From NCBI GenBank assembly GCA_964636215.1, contig CAZWRJ010000006.1:1-39802 (forward strand): 39,802 nucleotides of DNA, read 5' to 3'. This DNA comes from an uncultured Candidatus Saccharibacteria bacterium (GTDB lineage: Bacteria; Patescibacteriota; Saccharimonadia; Saccharimonadales; CAZJQT01). The position numbers and the translations under genes are program-made. This document shows positions 26,211 to 33,633 of the stretch, one piece after another. Below the pieces are notes generated by a model. That model made no database searches. It was not told the DNA's origin and worked only from the letters and a program-made list of their open reading frames with translations. Position 1 is the stretch's first letter. Each line of letters opens with the position of its first letter.

Positions 26211-27251
26211 TCAGATGACAACACCACCACCGAGTACACGACCATGATCATAAATGACAGTTGACTGGCCAGGAGTGATAGCCCGTACTGGTTCGGCTAA
26301 TACTATCTGGAGCTTACCAGATACTATCCTAAGAGAACCGCCTACTAGGGGTGCACGGTAACGAGTCCGAACCTGATAGCTCTTCGACAGATCGGGAGAG
26401 CTATTGATCCAATGTACTGAAGTTAGGTCTATGCTGTCTTGCCACAGCCGTTGGTCATCTAACTTGGTAGTTACATAAACAGTGTTCTTTTTCATATCTT
26501 TACCTACGACGTAGTATGGCAAGCCACCTCCCACGTCCAGCCCATGACGTTGTCCGATGGTGTAGAAAATAGCGCTGGGGTGCTCACCAATAACTTTGTC
26601 GTTCTGATCAATAATCGGTCCTGGTTTAGTTGTTACGTATTGCTGTAGAAATTCCTTGATGCCCACTTGTCCGACAAAACAAATACCCTGAGAGTCTTTT
26701 TTGTCGGCTGTCGACAAGCCAAATTTTTTGGCCATTGATCTAACTTCTGCTTTGGTCTTGAATTCACCAATTGGGAATAGGGTTTTTTGAAGCGCTTTTT
26801 CACTAACGCGATACAAAAAATAAGTTTGATCTTTATCTTTATTAATTGCTGTTAAGAGTTGTCCGTTTTTCGTTCTGGCATAATGGCCAGTGGCAATCAG
26901 TTCGGCACCATTTTCTAAAGCTGTGTTTAGAAATAGTTTGAACTTAATTTCCTGGTTGCACATTATGTCTGGGTTTGGCGTCCGACCAGCTTTATACTCG
27001 TCTAACATGTAATCCACTACTTTCTGTCTGTACTGTTTCTGGAAATCAAAGACCTTGAACTCAATACCCAACTTAGTGGCTACTCTTTTAGCATCTTGGT
27101 AGTCCTCCTGCCAAGTGCACGGTGTGCCAGGAAAATCCTGTGTCCAGTTTTTCATATAGACCCCGACAACTTTAAAACCGCGGTCTTGTAACAAAGCCGC
27201 TGTAAGTGAACTATCAACGCCACCACTCATGCCAACGTAAACTATTTTCAT
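26211..27251 (-). CDS. mnmA: tRNA-specific 2-thiouridylase MnmA
   Basis: SGGVDS, TPNPDIMCN, ATGHYA, KDQTYFL, DSQGICF, TIGQR, TPGQ. Confidence 0.97.
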   Translation of the reverse strand: MKIVYVGMSGGVDSSLTAALLQDRGFKVVGVYMKNWTQDFPGTPCTWQEDYQDAKRVATKLGIEFKVFDFQKQYRQKVVDYMLDEYKAGRTPNPDIMCNQEIKFKLFLNTALENGAELIATGHYARTKNGQLLTAINKDKDQTYFLYRVSEKALQKTLFPIGEFKTKAEVRSMAKKFGLSTADKKDSQGICFVGQVGIKEFLQQYVTTKPGPIIDQNDKVIGEHPSAIFYTIGQRHGLDVGGGLPYYVVGKDMKKNTVYVTTKLDDQRLWQDSIDLTSVHWINSSPDLSKSYQVRTRYRAPLVGGSLRIVSGKLQIVLAEPVRAITPGQSTVIYDHGRVLGGGVVI

Positions 27252-27301
27252 AACTGACCCATTTTAGAGGTATTTATCCCAAAAGAGAAGAACAGATGCG
27301 T

Positions 27302-27565
27302 TCAAACGTCCAAAAAGACAATTACTTCGTCGGCCTTGACGTGCATAATACCGCGGGCAATAGGAATTTTTTCTTCTTGGTTATCATGCCTAACTATGAC
27401 ATCACAGGGATTGAGTAAGGTCATGAAGTTATGATGATGTGGCAGGATGTCAAAAGCACCTTTTCCGTTAACGGCCGAAATGCTATCGGCCTGGCCATCG
27501 AAATAAACTCTAAATGGGGCATGGATCTTAACATGAATACTTGGTGTAATTTTGGTAGCCATCAT
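27302..27565 (-). CDS. atpC: F1 epsilon-like subunit, N-terminal beta-sandwich only
   Basis: VKIHAPFRVYFDG...GAFDILPHH...IARGIMHV pattern; 87 aa; follows beta with a 1 nt overlap. Confidence 0.8.
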   Translation of the reverse strand: MMATKITPSIHVKIHAPFRVYFDGQADSISAVNGKGAFDILPHHHNFMTLLNPCDVIVRHDNQEEKIPIARGIMHVKADEVIVFLDV

Positions 27566-28872
27566 CAGGCGATTATCTCCTCAATACTTTGCAGGGTTTG
27601 TTCACGAGTGAAGTAATCGCCCGGAATGTCATTGTGCCTAGTCATGACATTTAGATTTTGGGTAAAGTTGGTAATCAAACGCTTGGCTTTAGCGTAATCA
27701 GCACGATCATTAACAGACAGTTCGTTTTCACCAATAATACTTATGATACTTTTGAGCGATTCATACTTTTGCAGCAAAGCTTGAACCTGAACACTTAATA
27801 CATAGTGACGATCTCCAACAATCTCGGGGGTTAGTAGCGAAGAAGTAGTCTTGTTTAGATCAACTGCTGGGCGAATACCCTGCTCAGCTACCTCTCTAGA
27901 TAAAACAATTATGGAATCTAGTTCGTGCTGAATAAACTGAACGGCCGGATCGGATAAGTCGTCAGCCGGCACATAGATAGTTTGGACTGATGTTATCGAA
28001 CCTTTATCGTTAGAACTCAAACGATCCTGCAAAATTTTGACGTCTGAGAAAATACCTGGCTCGTAACCACCTTCACTAGGAGTTTGGTTAAGAATGATAG
28101 CTACTTCGTTACGAGCTTGGACATAACGGTACATATTATCAGCGAAAAATAGAATATCTTTACCCACTTCGTCACGAAAGTATTCAGCACCAGCTGTGGC
28201 TGCTATACCAACCAAGGCCCTTTGTACTGGGTTCTCATTCATCTGGCCAAAAAACATGCAGGTATTCTTTAGCAGATCGTTCTCACGAAGCGTGTCCCAC
28301 AGTTCATGACCTTCCCGAATACGCTCACCAATACCGGCAAAAAACGACAAGCCAGCGTGGCTGCGAGCAACATTGTTTATAAGCTCCATGGTAGTTATGG
28401 TCTTGCCAACCCCTGCCCAACCAACGATGCCAATTTTGTGACCTTTAACAAAAGGGGTGAAGAAATCAATAACTTTAATGCCTGTTTCTAATATTTCGGG
28501 TTTAGTAATTTTAAAGTCTAGGTTGCGTTTAGTAACCTGAAGAATATCTCTATAAACCACATTTTCGCCCTTGATAGGTGGTTGGCCGTCCAGTGGTTCT
28601 CCGACAGCGTTCAGAATCCGACCAATCGTCACTTCACCAACTGGCACTTCAATACCTTTGCCGGTTCGATTAATAGCCATGCCGCGTTGCACGCGGCGAT
28701 CGGAATGTATGTTTAGACAAATAGCCACCGAATCAGATTCTAGTTTGTCAACCAGTAGTTTGGTGTTAAAACCGTTATCAACAATTACTACTTCGCCAAT
28801 ATTGGGGCTATCGTCCTCAAACTGGGCCCAAACGACCAAGTCCTTTATAGAGATGATTTCACCAGCACTCAT
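27565..28872 (-). CDS. atpD: F1 beta-like subunit (divergent)
   Basis: ETGIKVIDF, GWAGVGKT, GIGERIREG, FGQMNENP, AEYFRD, SITSVQTIYVPADDLSDPA. Confidence 0.9.
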   Translation of the reverse strand: MSAGEIISIKDLVVWAQFEDDSPNIGEVVIVDNGFNTKLLVDKLESDSVAICLNIHSDRRVQRGMAINRTGKGIEVPVGEVTIGRILNAVGEPLDGQPPIKGENVVYRDILQVTKRNLDFKITKPEILETGIKVIDFFTPFVKGHKIGIVGWAGVGKTITTMELINNVARSHAGLSFFAGIGERIREGHELWDTLRENDLLKNTCMFFGQMNENPVQRALVGIAATAGAEYFRDEVGKDILFFADNMYRYVQARNEVAIILNQTPSEGGYEPGIFSDVKILQDRLSSNDKGSITSVQTIYVPADDLSDPAVQFIQHELDSIIVLSREVAEQGIRPAVDLNKTTSSLLTPEIVGDRHYVLSVQVQALLQKYESLKSIISIIGENELSVNDRADYAKAKRLITNFTQNLNVMTRHNDIPGDYFTREQTLQSIEEIIA

Positions 28873-29732
28873 AAACCTACCTTGCTGTGTTTATTTTTCA
28901 GCCCATTTATTACCTCTTTTAGACGCTCATCTTTAAGTGCTCGACGTGAGCGATTAAAACTTAGTCTGAGATCAGATTCTGCTTCGTCGGCTCTTTGATG
29001 ACTAGCAGTCATGGCACGAAAGCGTGAAGCATATTGGGCCAGTTTGGAATCAAGAATTAGCTGGCTCACAGCTATGTAGAGCATGGAACGCTCTAGGTGA
29101 TCAACTAGATCATAGGTGCTGGGCTCGAATATATAATTGGCCTCACTGATGACATCTTCTTTGGCGGCAGCCTTTCGGCCTTGTTGCTGAACCACATTAA
29201 TTAATTCAATTCGTTTTACATCCTGGACCATTAGAGTGACGTATTCCTGATAAAAAACCACAGTGCTACGGTAGGTTTGGATCTCATTAATAATTGGTGC
29301 CACGTTGATATTTTGATCTCTTACCGGCAACTTGAAGTACTTTTTGTAGGAAACCCCTCGTTGAGCTAGCTGGAGCGCTCCGTGATGACCGATAACAATG
29401 ATGTCGTTCTTATCAGCCTGATAAGTTTGCATCATCAACTTGATTAATTTTTGGTCAATATCACCGCTAAAACCACCCTCGGCAGTAATCAATATGTAGA
29501 GTTCTTTGTTGTTAACCTGGCCTGCTTCTTGTCTTCGCCCAAAACCAAAATCAGGATTAACTCTAAGCTGGGAGTATATATACCAAAGTTGTTTAAAAAA
29601 TTCAGTGGCTTGAAGCACTTGGTTTTTAATCTGAGCAATGCGCATACTAGCCAGACTCTCAAAAGCACCAGTCAACTCCACGAGGGTGGTCATGGCTAGT
29701 TCTTCACGCTTGATATCATTAGGCCGTTTCAT
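28869..29732 (-). CDS. atpG: F1 gamma-like subunit (divergent)
   Basis: N-terminal helix [36 protein letters not shown]...FNRSRR; lies between alpha and beta. Confidence 0.85.
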
Positions 29733-31249
29733 GATTTAGCCTTTTGATGGACTTCAGGCTTAGCGCCTTTAGCAGCTGCCGTCTTGTCTTGGTCGAATTT
29801 TGGAGCCGCTTGAGTTGAATCAATCTTTAGATTTATTAGACATTTAGTTTTAAGCTCTTCTCGCACCGGCTGATAACTATTATCATCCTTTACCATAGAC
29901 GCAAAACTATCAACGTTTAATTTTAAAGTTCCAATGTCTACGGAGGAGTTATCTTCAAGATTAAGTACGATATCAAGCATTAATTGTTGGGCAATTAGCG
30001 AGAAAGTAGTGCCTGTGGTTTGAGTTAAAAGTTCAAAAACTTGTTTACCAATTGTCATGGTTCGCTTGGTCTCAAGTGCCAATTCTGAACCAAAATGTGA
30101 ATATTCTTCAGCCTGACGGTAATCAGCTAGTAGTTTTAAGGTTTTGGCAGATAGTTCTTTTTGGCGCTTGTTATGACCTGCACCACCAACACGGGTAACA
30201 CTCAAACCTACATTTAAGGCCGGCCTAATACCTTTTCGAAAAATATCCATGTCCAAAATCCACTGACCATCGGTGATTGACATAACATTGGTGGGTAAAT
30301 AAGCTGTTATATCTCCACCGGCAGCATTGACGATAGCAATGCTGGTCAAATGAGCGCCTGTGCTTTCAAGACGACCAGCCCTTTCTAGGAGGCTAGAGTG
30401 GGTATAAAACATATCGCCTGGATAAGAGTCACGTCCTGGGCTAACACCACTAAGCAAGGCGATTTCTCTATAGACGTGGGCGTGGCTAGTTAAATCATCG
30501 TAAATAATAATGGTGTCTTGGGACAATTGTTGCCACAAGTACTCCGCCATGGAACAGGCCACATAAGGAGCAAGGTAGTTCATGATCGGCGACTCAAGCA
30601 TGGTGGATACTACAATTATGGCTTTGCTTAGTGCACCATTGGTTTCCAGTTGAGAAATCAGTGTATCGACGTCGTTTCGACTCTTAGCGATTAAAGCATA
30701 GACCACTATTTGATCAGTGTTTTTTTGATTAATCGTAAGTTGAGTTACTAAAGTACTTTTGCCTGATTTACCATCACCAAGTAGAGCCATACGCTGACCC
30801 CTTACTACCGGGAATAACGAATCGACAGCCATAACTCCACTTTCTAGTTGAGTATCAAGTAGTTTACGGTTATGCAGTGGGGGAGCCGCGTTAAAGACTG
30901 GCCAAACTGCGTCAGCAGCAATTGGTCCTTTGCCATCTAGCGGTTCACCCGTCACGCTGACTACTCGGCCTATGAAGTCCTTGCCAACTTTGCAGACTAG
31001 CTCTTGGTGCTGAATTACAGCCACCATGCCAACTGTCAGGTTTTTCGATCCAAGATGCAGAACTAACACATCGTCTTCGTTTATATGGTGCACAAACCCC
31101 TTACTACCGTCAGAAAACATTACTAGCGCCCTAGTATTGCATGGTTGTAAACCACGTACTCGAATTAAGAAACGATCTACGGAAATAACTTCGCCCACTG
31201 GGTTGCCGCTTTTGACTAGTCGGTCAAAGTGTTTGTTGTCACCATTCAT
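29729..31249 (-). CDS. atpA: F1 alpha-like subunit (divergent)
   Basis: [65 protein letters not shown]. Confidence 0.9.
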
Positions 31250-31767
31250 GCCGTCGGATTTCCTTTGGCAACTTCATCAGATTTAGGTTCAAAACGTGAG
31301 ATTAGTAATGAACGTTTGTCAGTAAACTTTTGTCGAAGGCTGAAATCGAAGTATTTATTGTCAGTACGTATTGTGCAGCCGGCACCCATTCCAGGTTGTA
31401 GGCCAGTTTGTAACATAACTTGAGGGTGAATATTCTGTCTGAGCCAAGTGATGAGTTTTTGCAGGAAAATAGCCGATGGATCAGTACTAAAACTCATATG
31501 CAAACGTGGAGCTTGCTCATAGACAGACTCCAAGTAGATTTTTAGCTTCTGGCGATCAGCTTCTTGAAGCATGTTAAGTTTGTTTAGCATAATTAAGTCA
31601 TCAAATAGCCGACTGGTTCTCGGCAACTTCATAGATGTACCAGGTTGACGCACCGCCGCTTGACGTAAAAAGGTATCGACAGTAACAAGTTCTTTCTGTA
31701 AACGAAAGATATCACTTCGGCCAACTACACTAGTAGGCAGGTGTAGTTCTACGAGCTCAGCTGTCAT
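31246..31767 (-). CDS. F1 delta-like protein (divergent)
   Basis: C-terminal [26 protein letters not shown] resembles the delta/OSCP C-domain (D..l.gG..i..gd..iD.S); lies directly before alpha. Confidence 0.65.
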
Positions 31768-32374
31768 GAGTTATGTCCTCGATGATTTCTTGCTTATGGG
31801 TTTCCAGTTCGCCCAGGATATATTCCAGCTGATCACTGAGGTCAATTTGGTCACCAACGGCCGCCAGTACGTAATGATTAACGATGTCGGCCATCTTGTT
31901 TTCGAATTGTTTGATCAAACGTTGTTTCTCATTATTGAGTTCTTGGGTCAATTGTTGACCCATCATTTGACGTTGTTGTTCAATAGCTTCTTGGGTCTTA
32001 GTAAGAGACTGGGTGGCTAGATCTTTGGCATCGGTGATTGATTTTTCATAGCGAGCAAATTCTTCCTGCAAGGTCCGAGTAATTTCTTCCTTCATGAAAT
32101 CGTTCAAATGAGAGGTTGTTAGGCGTAGATCTTGTTGCAAAAACATAGCATTTTCACCAATAATTTTTTCAAAGTGCAACCGCCCACGATTACGCAGTTC
32201 CTCGCGAAAATCACTATTAAAGATATGTTCAACGTCACGCTCAGCTTGATCTTGGTATGGATCTTTACCGGTCTTTGAGCCGTGACCTTTACCGAGTTGC
32301 TGAGCTATATAAATAAAAGCCACAGTCGCCGATAAGAGAGTGGCTAAAATTATTGCTAACTCCCATGCACTCAC
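31757..32374 (-). CDS. Fo b-like protein (single N-terminal TM plus long coiled coil)
   Basis: TM at aa 4-24 followed by about 150 aa of E/Q/K-rich helix; first gene of the F1-like operon. Confidence 0.55.
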   Translation of the reverse strand: MSAWELAIILATLLSATVAFIYIAQQLGKGHGSKTGKDPYQDQAERDVEHIFNSDFREELRNRGRLHFEKIIGENAMFLQQDLRLTTSHLNDFMKEEITRTLQEEFARYEKSITDAKDLATQSLTKTQEAIEQQRQMMGQQLTQELNNEKQRLIKQFENKMADIVNHYVLAAVGDQIDLSDQLEYILGELETHKQEIIEDITHDS

Positions 32375-32472
32375 TATAAAATTCCCACCTTAAATTGTGC
32401 TCATTACTTCAGTATAAATATACCTCAAAGATACCGCTTATGGAAATCACTTGATATAGGCATCTACCTCTG

Positions 32473-33633
32473 CTAGTGGACAATACTAGACAAACTGTCA
32501 ACAAAGTAACGAATACTGCTTTCGGTAGTGAATTGGCCCATGGTTATGCGCAAGCTAGCCTGGGCGTCTTTATCACTAAGGCCAATGCTCTTTAGTACAT
32601 GGGAGGGTTCGGCAGAACTGGCACTACAAGCAGAGCCAGCTGCACATTCAATGCCTCTCTCGTCAAGGGCAAATAATAGTCTTTCATTATCTTGACCATG
32701 TATGGTTATGTGCAAATTATTAGGCAGACGATGTTTTAAGGAACCGTTAATTTTTGCCTGTGGCAATTGTTGGCTAAGTAGATCAATAAGTAATTTCTGT
32801 AACGAATTTAGGCGTTTAACTTCTATTGGTCTTTTTTTGGCAACTAGTTCCAGAGCCTTAGCCAAACCAATTGAAGCTGCCACATTTTCAGTACCGCTTC
32901 TAAGACCTCGTTCTTGGCCGCCACCGTAAATCAAAGGCTCAAGTTTTACCTTATTACTGACATATAGGACACCGCTCTGTTTTGGCCCATAGATCTTGCC
33001 ACCATTCAGGCTCATAAGATCAACCCTCAAGCGATTTACGTGTAAATCAAGATAATTAGCTGCTTGACAGGCATCTGTGTGAAAATAAAGCGGTAGTTTA
33101 TTACCTTTTTTAAGCCGTTCGATTTTAATTTGTTGGATAACTCCAGCTAGTTCTTTGATTGACTGAATGGTACCAATTTCGTTGTTGGCATACATAATAC
33201 TGATTAGCACCGTGTCACTTGTAATAACTTTGTTGAGTTCATCGGCGGTGATCAGGCCTTCTTGGGTGGGTCTAAGCTCCGTGAGACGAAAGCCTTTAGA
33301 CGCCAACTTTTTGGCCGGCTGAAGTATCGAATCATGCTCCAGACTACTAACGACCAGGTGCTTACCTGGAAATTGTTTCATGATCCCAAAGATCGCTAGG
33401 TTGTTAGCCTCGGTGCCACCAGCTGCAAAAATTATTTCGCTGGATCTGGCTCCTAGTACCGATGCCACCTTACTTCTGGCGCTACCTAGGTCTTGGTTGA
33501 CTTGTTTGGCAGCAAGATAGATAGCCGATGGGTTATAAAATTGATCACTCAAATAAGGCTTCATAGCCGCGAGAACTTGTTTATTTAACGGTGTAGCGGC
33601 TGCATAATCTAGATATACGTGGTTTTTAGCCAT
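32473..33633 (-). CDS. iscS: Cysteine desulfurase (IscS/NifS type)
   Basis: YLDYAAATP, GGTEANN, MYANNEIG, HTDACQA, GGKIYGPK, RSGTEN, AGSACS. Confidence 0.93.
   Translation of the reverse strand: MAKNHVYLDYAAATPLNKQVLAAMKPYLSDQFYNPSAIYLAAKQVNQDLGSARSKVASVLGARSSEIIFAAGGTEANNLAIFGIMKQFPGKHLVVSSLEHDSILQPAKKLASKGFRLTELRPTQEGLITADELNKVITSDTVLISIMYANNEIGTIQSIKELAGVIQQIKIERLKKGNKLPLYFHTDACQAANYLDLHVNRLRVDLMSLNGGKIYGPKQSGVLYVSNKVKLEPLIYGGGQERGLRSGTENVAASIGLAKALELVAKKRPIEVKRLNSLQKLLIDLLSQQLPQAKINGSLKHRLPNNLHITIHGQDNERLLFALDERGIECAAGSACSASSAEPSHVLKSIGLSDKDAQASLRITMGQFTTESSIRYFVDSLSSIVH

Follow-up and report, generated by a model that had tools for sequence, protein, structure and literature searches.

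Rotary F-type ATPases are the textbook example of ion-coupled machines, and to our knowledge the only repurposed versions of them are the F1-like X0 ATPases of Mycoplasma. As described in the available portions of two papers, these comprise an extra set of subunits, namely alpha, beta, gamma and epsilon, that is found beside the F1Fo enzyme in genome-reduced, host-dependent bacteria, has membrane partners other than those of Fo, and is thought to power a process at the cell surface, such as gliding or the cleavage of antibodies by the MIB-MIP system (PMC3369863, PMC12994834). Here we report a divergent, six-gene F1-type operon that includes a peripheral stalk but no a or c subunit, on the minus strand of a contig from an uncultured Candidatus Saccharibacteria bacterium (CAZWRJ010000006.1, assembly GCA_964636215.1; this whole stretch of 39,802 nt is referred to as the window). 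Sets like it in other Patescibacteria are labeled ‘type 2’ below, a label distinct from the type 2 of Mycoplasma. With a probability that we put at roughly 55%, the operon encodes an ATP-hydrolyzing, ion-uncoupled rotary motor that acts on a ring of cX, a protein combining external domains with a hairpin similar to subunit c.

Truncated F-type operons that contain only the cytoplasmic subunits, and whose function is unknown, are reported for many bacteria in the available text of a preprint of October 2026, the methods of which refer to unusual beta-subunit neighborhoods in the Candidate Phyla Radiation. Its main text, as far as available, mentions neither a c-like fusion partner nor a short epsilon nor Saccharibacteria, and its Supplementary Figure S3 may show such operons. 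A literature search, outside of which that figure lay, found no description of the present system in Patescibacteria. A Tn-seq study (Cell 2023) found the F-type ATP synthase of Southlakia to be dispensable and, in its available portion, does not mention a second set (PMC10633639); nor is a second F1-like set mentioned in the available portions of PMC10656485 and PMC11665869.

A second F1-type gene set beside a canonical ATP synthase

Six open reading frames (ORFs; window positions 27302-32374) make up the operon. From first to last they are b-like, delta-like, alpha, gamma, beta and epsilon, and they overlap by 11, 4, 4, 4 and 1 nt and are separated by a 98-nt gap from an iscS-like gene upstream. 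In these respects the ORF list and the Pfam matches agree with an earlier interpretation of the window from its letters alone (the sequence-only reading), as does the finding that no a- or c-like ORF occurs in the window. The source genome (740,556 bp in 37 contigs, 97.7% complete, with the window as contig C6) contains a complete canonical operon on contig C9, which encodes an atpI-like protein, a (273 amino acids, aa), c (77 aa), b (175 aa), delta (134 aa), alpha (520 aa), gamma (291 aa), a 174-aa ORF, beta (469 aa), an 81-aa ORF and epsilon (143 aa). Matches above cut-off to PF00119 and PF00137 are confined to C9, with one a and one c in the genome, and a whole-genome search with these families and with our own a, c and hairpin profiles gave matches only on C9 and on contig C3 (discussed below), apart from a single PF00137 match on C4 that lies under the family cut-off (E 0.22). 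The PF00006 matches amount to two alpha/beta pairs, that of C9 and that of the window.

Since the canonical operon on C9 is complete and there are two alpha/beta pairs, the window operon is a second, paralogous set, and a simple split operon is ruled out; the whole-genome search that the sequence-only reading had proposed, for atpB, atpE and a second canonical operon, located all of these together on C9. The two sets are only distantly related, with identities of 41% for alpha, 44% for beta, 22% for gamma and 25% for epsilon, and BLASTP between the two b proteins, or between the two delta proteins, of the genome returned no match. These values, together with the beta tree described below, likewise rule out a recent duplication of the canonical F1. 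The earlier view that this operon is not the ATP synthase of the cell is thereby upheld, both by the C9 operon and by the placement of the window beta outside the canonical betas. The 174-aa ORF (L008:5083-5607, between atpG and atpD) and the 81-aa ORF (L008:3448-3693, between atpD and atpC) have no Pfam match, and the spacing between gamma and beta is also variable in the canonical operons of relatives.

The catalytic beta-like subunit (27565-28872, minus strand, as are all six genes; 435 aa, with no N-terminal extension) matches PF00006 at E 4e-60 and the NCBIfam atpD family at 406 bits against a cut-off of 463, and retains a Walker A motif (GWAGVGKT), the sequence GIGERIREG and a Walker B motif (LFFADNMYR). 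Its acidic DELSEED-type loop is degenerate, reading GENELSVND in the window and GENELSxxD across the second set. The alpha-like, non-catalytic subunit (29729-31249; 506 aa) matches PF00006 at E 8e-65 and NCBIfam atpA at 380 bits against a cut-off of 484, and combines a P-loop (GDGKSGKS) and an arginine finger (SVTRVGG) with a C-terminal tail rich in Lys and Ala. The names and roles of these motifs are well established for F1, for the catalytic beta residues as for the alpha arginine finger, and the two that had been singled out in the sequence-only reading (GERIRE in beta and SVTRVG in alpha) are indeed present. The gamma-like central shaft (28869-29732; 287 aa) is recognized by PF00231 (E 2e-30), reaches 86 bits against an NCBIfam cut-off of 194, and aligns with canonical gamma at 99.9% over 273 columns in a profile-profile comparison (hhalign). 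Epsilon (27302-27565) is short, its 87 residues comprising the N-terminal beta-sandwich only, with no C-terminal helical hairpin; PF02823 matches residues 10-85 at E 1e-14, the family alignment stops at the sandwich, and the NCBIfam score is 45 bits against 67. As alpha, beta, gamma and epsilon all fall under their NCBIfam equivalog cut-offs, the term ‘divergent’, which the sequence-only reading had used, is apt.

The two stalk proteins are less readily recognized from single sequences. The delta/OSCP-like protein (31246-31767; 173 aa), the gene of which overlaps the b-like gene by 11 nt, gives marginal matches to OSCP (E 0.028) and to atpH (NF004402, E 0.004), and hhalign relates it to canonical delta with a probability of 97.2% (E 3e-11) over 85 columns in its C-terminal part. 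The b-like protein (31757-32374; 205 aa) starts at a GTG codon preceded by a Shine-Dalgarno-like AAGGTGG, has a predicted transmembrane (TM) helix at residues ~6-24 and continues in a long helical region. A single N-terminal hydrophobic segment is likewise found in 20 of 20 orthologs from Saccharimonadales and in nine of ten distant ones. Its single-sequence Pfam and NCBIfam matches are also marginal (ATP-synt_B, E 0.006; alt F0 B, E 0.005), and hhalign aligns it with canonical b at 80.6% (E 1e-5) in the helical part only. The b and delta comparisons used profiles built from orthologs, and four mismatched controls all remained below 1%. Judged by these profile matches, the alpha, beta, gamma, epsilon and delta-like proteins are homologous to F1 subunits and thus belong to the F-type rotary ATPase superfamily.

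Conservation, distribution and beta phylogeny

Among 40 genomes of relatives (two from the same family and 38 from the same order, mostly one genome per family), 30 contain an ortholog of the window beta, defined by at least 52% identity or by fragments of high identity, with canonical betas at ~42-46%; this count takes in the unpublished genome G035. The type-2 betas are 53-79% identical across families, and the same six genes stand in the same order in all 20 loci compared (from 19 genomes of the order), while the 16 canonical loci of relatives read a-c-b-delta-alpha-gamma-beta-epsilon, with a found by BLASTP in 15 and c in 14, one locus running into a contig end. The catalytic motifs are conserved as well: a P-loop of the form GGAGVGKT is present in 20 of 21 betas from Saccharimonadales and in 10 of 13 other type-2 sequences, the pattern GERxREG in 33 of 34 (the remaining one reads GERSREA), and the arginine of the alpha SV(S/T)R motif in 34 of 34. 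These observations bear on the possibility that the operon is a decaying, non-functional duplicate. Scores under the family cut-offs, an unusual Trp in the P-loop of the window beta and the failure to find the operon in 10 of the 40 relatives could be read in that way, but six intact frames with coupled overlaps, conserved catalytic motifs, a gene order kept in 20 of 20 loci of the order, recurrence of the operon in other classes and the beta identity across families all speak against it, and we disfavor decay as scarcely credible. Two relatives contain more than one copy: G012 has two complete type-2 operons (L031 and L032), one of them linked to iscS and the other more divergent (62% beta identity), and G035 has two beta orthologs in the search table.

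The system extends well beyond the order, as was found in a sample of 401 genomes from across the Patescibacteria. The window gamma as a single query matched 19 of these genomes, and the window beta as a query found several genomes of other classes with two or three betas. Of 27 loci that were fetched and annotated with profiles built on the Saccharimonadales sets, 15 are operons without a and c (b-like, delta-like, alpha, gamma, beta and a short epsilon) and eight are full canonical operons with both. Epsilon measures 82-98 aa in the 15 type-2 loci versus 136-151 aa in the 11 canonical loci where it was captured. A type-2 gamma profile, built from 34 sequences and used with a cut-off of 157 bits (the canonical gamma of the source genome scores 108 bits), places a type-2 gamma in 63 of the 401 genomes, a conservative count because the scores grade continuously below ~150 bits. 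The synteny survey across the phylum that the sequence-only reading had called for returned an operon without a and c that recurs in many classes. In one locus of the same class (L069, G208), ~2.4 kb with four small ORFs are inserted between the type-2 gamma and beta genes, and in six distant type-2 loci (L093, L182, L184, L187, L189 and L192) the ORF resembling the short epsilon was assigned to the other strand than the rest of the operon. Family f40 of the window's order is mostly without the system, with a type-2 gamma of the cX-linked kind in three of 11 sampled genomes and cX in three of 11. If f40 corresponds to the mammal-associated Saccharimonadaceae, which include most cultured strains, this could explain why the system has gone unnoticed.

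A tree of beta sequences (65 rows, 455 columns, LG+F+G4, 1000 ultrafast bootstraps (UFBoot), with four alphas as outgroup) unites 29 of 33 type-2 betas, including that of the window and drawn from many classes of Patescibacteria, in one clade (UFBoot 100). The beta of locus L079 and one unnamed representative are the sister of this main clade (98), and L070, L080 and L194 (G049, G045 and G420), also from operons without a and c, form a separate clade (100), named type 2b here. The 14 canonical betas from Patescibacteria are all united with four of the eight remaining betas from unnamed representatives (99). The representatives are metagenomic proteins without taxon names from a phmmer search of 1.84 billion sequences, used as tree rows only; by their NCBIfam labels, P0171 is a Mycoplasma type 2 sequence and P0170 a type 3 sequence, with P0183 just under the type 3 cut-off, and all three fall outside the type-2 clade. 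The tree contains no N-type sequence, as none occurred among the representatives scanned for it. Its root is unresolved (the branch to the alpha outgroup measures 2.9 substitutions per site, with support of 53-57), and FastTree and fast IQ-TREE analyses place the type-2 betas in a grade close to the base as rooted on alpha. L070 and L080 also have three further gene families in common, and in L074, L076 and L079 (G068, G095 and G059, from two families of Patescibacteria) the type-2 betas carry C-terminal extensions, for total lengths of 646-764 aa.

Family models give a similar picture. Membership of the Mycoplasma type 3 group (NF045934 and NF045936, the MSC_0618/0619 family) is rejected by scores of 360 bits for beta and 251 for alpha against cut-offs of 570 and 520, and by a different gene content, and that of the type 2 group (NF045858 and NF045863, the MMOB1660/1670 family) by 330 and 314 bits against 850 and 600. 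Against the alt_F1F0 models of N-type enzymes, beta scores 364, alpha 318, gamma 38 and epsilon 29 bits, where 752, 750, 282 and 100 are required, and N-type membership is rejected as well. The kinship with the Mycoplasma F1-like ATPases at which the sequence-only reading had hinted is thus contradicted by scores far under the cut-offs, by placement elsewhere in the tree and by gene content; of the alpha and beta trees that it had suggested, the beta tree separates the window set from the canonical F-type and the Mycoplasma type 2 and 3 sequences, the N-type comparison resting on the family scores.

The cX protein and its linkage to the operon

When the ORFs flanking 15 distant loci were clustered, a single family, cX, appeared in 11 of them, mostly directly upstream of the b-like gene and on the same strand. 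The cX proteins (250-307 aa) consist of an N-terminal hydrophobic signal or anchor, an extracytoplasmic domain of ~190 aa and two C-terminal hydrophobic helices, which are joined by a G-R-N-P-L loop. The R, N and P of this loop are invariant in 26 of 26 hairpins, and the canonical c subunits of the same genomes read G-R-N-P-E at the equivalent position. In hhalign, the 26 cX hairpins align with 14 canonical c subunits at 94.8% (E 4.8e-8) over 66 columns that span both helices. Furthermore, a search of the sequences of PDB chains with the cX profile yielded 11 matches, six of them ATP synthase c chains aligned over the whole of c (best 9itj_H, E 0.0097), and the same profile matches the canonical c of the source genome at E 0.004. 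The predicted topology of cX is that of c, with the N-terminus outside and the loop inside. By these alignments the cX hairpin is homologous to the F-type subunit c, the loop of which is the docking site of gamma and epsilon in the c-ring. Pfam has no family for cX, and among the best 120 of 353 cX homologs nearly all named rows are called ‘hypothetical protein’; the near relatives of the window beta, labeled Candidatus Saccharibacteria or Patescibacteria group, are all named ‘F0F1 ATP synthase subunit beta’. With type-2 genes named as F0F1 ATP synthase subunits and cX as a hypothetical protein, metabolic reconstructions may over-count ATP synthases.

The membrane-embedded Glu that is nearly invariant in canonical c is replaced in cX by hydrophobic or small residues, and no acidic residue occurs there. 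A ring of cX might nonetheless translocate ions via other polar residues, with a non-homologous stator channel supplied by an unrecognized a-like partner; a Gln or Glu is found 12 residues after the loop Pro in 16 of the 26 hairpins, many of them from Saccharimonadia, and unassigned ORFs lie beside some operons. However, this Gln/Glu position is not conserved outside Saccharimonadia, in the cX of the source genome itself that position is Arg and the Glu follows the loop Pro by only nine residues, the position of the canonical carboxylate is hydrophobic, and no conserved multi-helix membrane protein stands beside the operons. We regard ion translocation of this kind as very improbable.

The hairpin is also found in other contexts. 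It is fused to an NHL beta-propeller in L079, forms the end of two large ORFs, 2573 and 2592 aa long and at a distance of ~3 to 5 kb from type 2b operons (in G049, where the loop reads GRNPF, and in G045), and occurs in unlinked ORFs of 658 aa (G068) and 631 aa (G095). The ectodomain module of cX (profile positions ~30-185) is common in giant predicted surface ORFs of ~400-6900 aa (maximum 6895) across the Patescibacteria.

In 13 of the 20 Saccharimonadales loci, a cX gene on the same strand separates iscS from the b-like gene, and cX is likewise found upstream of the operon in 17 of 20 further loci from other families, none of which contains a or c. Among the best 80 of 366 cX relatives, located in species genomes of the GTDB and almost all labeled Saccharibacteria, Saccharimonadales or Patescibacteria, the complete b-delta-alpha-gamma-beta-epsilon series stands immediately after cX in 62 cases, and b or b-delta follows before the contig ends in seven more (69 linked in all); of the remainder, four have a giant ORF (1433-2856 aa) after cX and seven are too short or unclear. 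Across the 40 relatives, 28 genomes have both a type-2 beta and cX, eight have neither, two have beta only (G003, 99% complete, and G018, 81%) and two have cX only (G004, with an alpha-like gene next to it on the same short contig, and G037, 89% complete). Of the 401 phylum-wide genomes, 55 have a cX-type ORF and 63 a type-2 gamma, with 52 belonging to both groups; a lower-scoring gamma lies 2-3 kb from cX in two others (G339 and G283), and G070 has cX only. As the sampled genomes are related, these co-occurrence tables describe a pattern and do not amount to a statistical test.

A further point is the independence of the operon from Fo. When the 55 type-2 loci that had been fetched around beta or gamma were annotated with profiles, neither an a gene nor a c gene was found in them. 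In G066 (~0.5 Mb in 30 contigs, 100% complete by markers) the one alpha/beta pair is of the second type and is accompanied by cX, and neither PF00137 nor PF00119 has a match at E up to 1. G062 (two contigs, 100% complete) combines type 2 with a V/A-type enzyme that has doubled proteolipids, and contains no F-type a, and in two genomes of the window's order (G023 and G027, 93% and 88% complete) a type-2 operon was found but no a or c. That relatives retain the operon in genomes without a or c supports the ion-uncoupled character proposed in the sequence-only reading.

These genomes also bear on whether the operon is instead an alternative F1-plus-stalk that shares the canonical a and c-ring encoded on C9, as a hydrolysis-biased isoform pumping protons to maintain the membrane potential of a fermenter. 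The short epsilon would suit such an enzyme, the source genome has canonical a and c and no cX beside the window operon, in G003 the only c that accompanies the operon is canonical, and nearly all type-2 genomes carry a canonical operon as well. Yet G066 keeps the operon without a or c and G062 pairs it only with a V/A-type enzyme; in addition, canonical b has to bind a, and the b-like protein does not resemble it in the TM segment or in the region that follows; gamma and epsilon share just 22% and 25% identity with the canonical pair docking on that c-ring; and the adjacency and co-occurrence of cX would be left unexplained. We therefore consider a shared Fo to be quite unlikely, and the membrane partner of the window set is probably a dedicated cX rather than the a/c pair of Fo. 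The sequence-only reading had described a membrane-tethered enzyme lacking the Fo subunits a and c. The tether stands, in the form of the one TM helix of the b-like protein, and the absence of a c-type partner does not, given a c-like hairpin protein that is encoded upstream in most relatives and in one copy on C3 in the source genome.

That copy, the sole cX of the genome (C3:80235-81071, 278 aa), lies outside the window. Located 145 nt downstream of it in the same orientation is a giant ORF (L094:2-6091), which exceeds 2030 aa and extends past the stretch fetched. This ORF is rich in Gly, Thr, Ser and Asn, has an N-terminal membrane anchor and has no Pfam match. In a FastTree analysis of 87 cX sequences, the copy falls in a ‘type B’ subclade (support 0.989) with all four of the giant-ORF-linked copies among the best 80 loci, sister to the subclade of operon-linked cX (0.966). 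One of the giant ORFs of the type B neighbors carries a Peptidase_S74 ‘chaperone of endosialidase’ domain, as found in trimeric phage fibers. By this phylogeny and the synteny of relatives, the window operon is one that has lost its adjacent cX, and the fiber-linked paralog is the only candidate ring protein; the operon also lacks an adjacent cX in G009, G011, G017, G022 and G034.

The site occupied by cX in most relatives is represented in the window by the 98-nt spacer (32375-32472, minus strand) between the iscS-like and b-like genes, and no cX is present there. The upstream ORF (32473-33633) is a class-V aminotransferase, iscS-like (Pfam Aminotran_5, E 1.6e-63), with a TatD gene farther upstream, and mnmA and alaS follow downstream of the operon. 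The operon is thus flanked by genes for an iscS-like cysteine desulfurase and for mnmA (window 26211-33633), which act together in the 2-thiolation of tRNA; the upstream gene is iscS in 18 of 20 related loci, and mnmA lies downstream in seven of 20 within the short flank fetched. A scan for promoters and terminators gave no excess over chance in the region, with one promoter-like site (32446-32417) in the spacer.

A candidate ATP-driven surface machine and its counterparts

From the gene content, homologies, catalytic motifs, phylogeny, distribution, adjacency and co-occurrence described above, we infer how the parts would assemble, form a ring and rotate, and what their biological role might be. 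The alpha3beta3 assembly would hydrolyze ATP, and the short epsilon would let the motor run in the direction of hydrolysis because it lacks the C-terminal domain, which in bacterial F1 inhibits that reaction. Gamma and epsilon would turn a ring of cX hairpins against a stator composed of delta and the membrane-anchored b-like protein, and ions would not be moved, as both the a subunit and the carboxylate are missing. Torque or movement would then be passed to the external domains of cX and to their contacts, possibly the host cell or giant surface proteins of a fiber-like kind. Resisting torque is what a peripheral stalk is for, and its retention in the window set (it is absent from the Mycoplasma clusters) argues for real torque. 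If the parts assemble as the genes suggest, the energy of ATP would cross the membrane in this form. The ‘mechanical work’ that the sequence-only reading had assigned to the enzyme may accordingly take place at the cell surface, with attachment, movement along the host or the handling of giant fibers among the possibilities for the external ring.

Several observations weigh against this interpretation. Helix 1 of cX does not have the Gly-rich packing motif of c-rings, and the resemblance of the b-like protein to canonical b is modest and confined to the coiled-coil part. The N-terminus of alpha, which binds delta in F1Fo, is ~15 residues shorter than in canonical alpha. The P-loop of the window beta reads GWAGVGKT (28350-28430) where those of the other 20 of 21 Saccharimonadales type-2 betas read GGAGVGKT, and the Trp could be a real substitution of this lineage or an assembly error. 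Eleven of the 63 genomes with a type-2 gamma lack this cX family. A hairpin-only profile was run on four of them (G049, G045, G068 and G095, with the hairpins given above) and on G003, which is 99% complete; in G003, despite the presence of the operon, it detects the canonical c alone and no hairpin of the cX type. The co-occurrence counts span kin genomes, which are not independent, and kinship inflates them. Finally, the cX of the source genome is unlinked to the operon, and the conserved neighbor of its type B subclade is a giant ORF rather than an ATPase, so that its pairing with the window operon is by elimination only.

The missing Gly motif also speaks for a non-rotary or gate-activating, stalk-tethered ATPase analogous to the flagellar and type III secretion module FliH-FliI-FliJ, in which the shaft would activate or feed a membrane translocase or unfoldase and cX would serve as an anchor or cargo receptor. 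The gene content, with a stalk, P-loop subunits, a shaft and no ion channel, would fit this arrangement, and the FliI/SctN families are secondary NCBIfam matches of alpha and beta. On the other hand, alpha and beta are of the heterohexamer type, gamma is of full length and the epsilon sandwich is retained, all of them closest to F1; the invariant R-N-P loop of cX is a feature by which c-rings contact gamma and epsilon; and no translocase gene is conserved as a neighbor in the compared loci, nor are genes for an export gate found near the compared type-2 loci. We hold this alternative to be unlikely. The rotary motor acting on cX is the interpretation that we prefer, and as an extension of it we tentatively suggest, as a possibility with the odds somewhat against it, a new class of surface machine, in which an F-type motor spins or cyclically displaces a ring of hairpins derived from c, with external domains between a 190-aa module and fibers of 2,500 aa in size, as an ATP-powered counterpart of motors driven by the proton motive force (PMF).

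Patescibacteria are described, in the available portions of two studies, as fermentative and without a respiratory chain (PMC11665869, PMC10633639), for which reason they may drive with ATP the extracytoplasmic work that others perform with proton-driven motors. If correct, the proposed motor could explain surface work in such organisms, as the ATP-powered counterpart, for epibionts with a low PMF, of MotAB, ExbBD and GldLM, which are PMF-driven; host attachment, surface movement and envelope remodeling are possible functions. It would also provide a testable handle on the epibiotic lifestyle of Saccharibacteria.

Compared with the canonical F1Fo ATP synthase (atpIBEFHAGDC), the type-2 set shares the order b-delta-alpha-gamma-beta-epsilon, the subunit folds as recognized by profiles, the catalytic Glu, the P-loops and the arginine finger, a single-pass, b-type anchor and a partner hairpin that is a homolog of c with the same loop motif. 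It differs in that a is absent, the C-terminal domain of epsilon is gone, the hairpin of cX, without the carboxylate and without the Gly motif, is part of a fusion with a signal peptide and an external domain, and the set coexists with a true F1Fo in the source genome. Like the N-type ATPase, which some prokaryotes encode in addition to their main F-type operon, it forms a second operon of this kind; N-type operons encode a and c, plus atpQ and atpR, and their enzymes move ions. FliH-FliI-FliJ likewise combines a stalk, a P-loop ring and a shaft, with no ion channel, and acts on a membrane machine, but the window set has alpha and beta paralogs, a full gamma and an epsilon, and its closest families are those of F1 and not FliI.

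The closest known kind is the Mycoplasma F1-like X0 ATPase. In the published descriptions, as far as available, the Mycoplasma clusters comprise seven genes, in the order 12-TM protein, protein 2, gamma, epsilon, protein 5, alpha and beta, and contain no b, delta or c-like protein, unlike the window set; the Mycoplasma type 2 beta has an N-terminal extension of ~30 kDa, which the window beta lacks. By the sequence comparisons made here, the Patescibacteria lineage is independent of the Mycoplasma enzymes and different in every accessory part. It is also much more widespread, and it keeps the rotor foot, the stator and a c-derived hairpin, with the ion path dropped and extracellular domains added.

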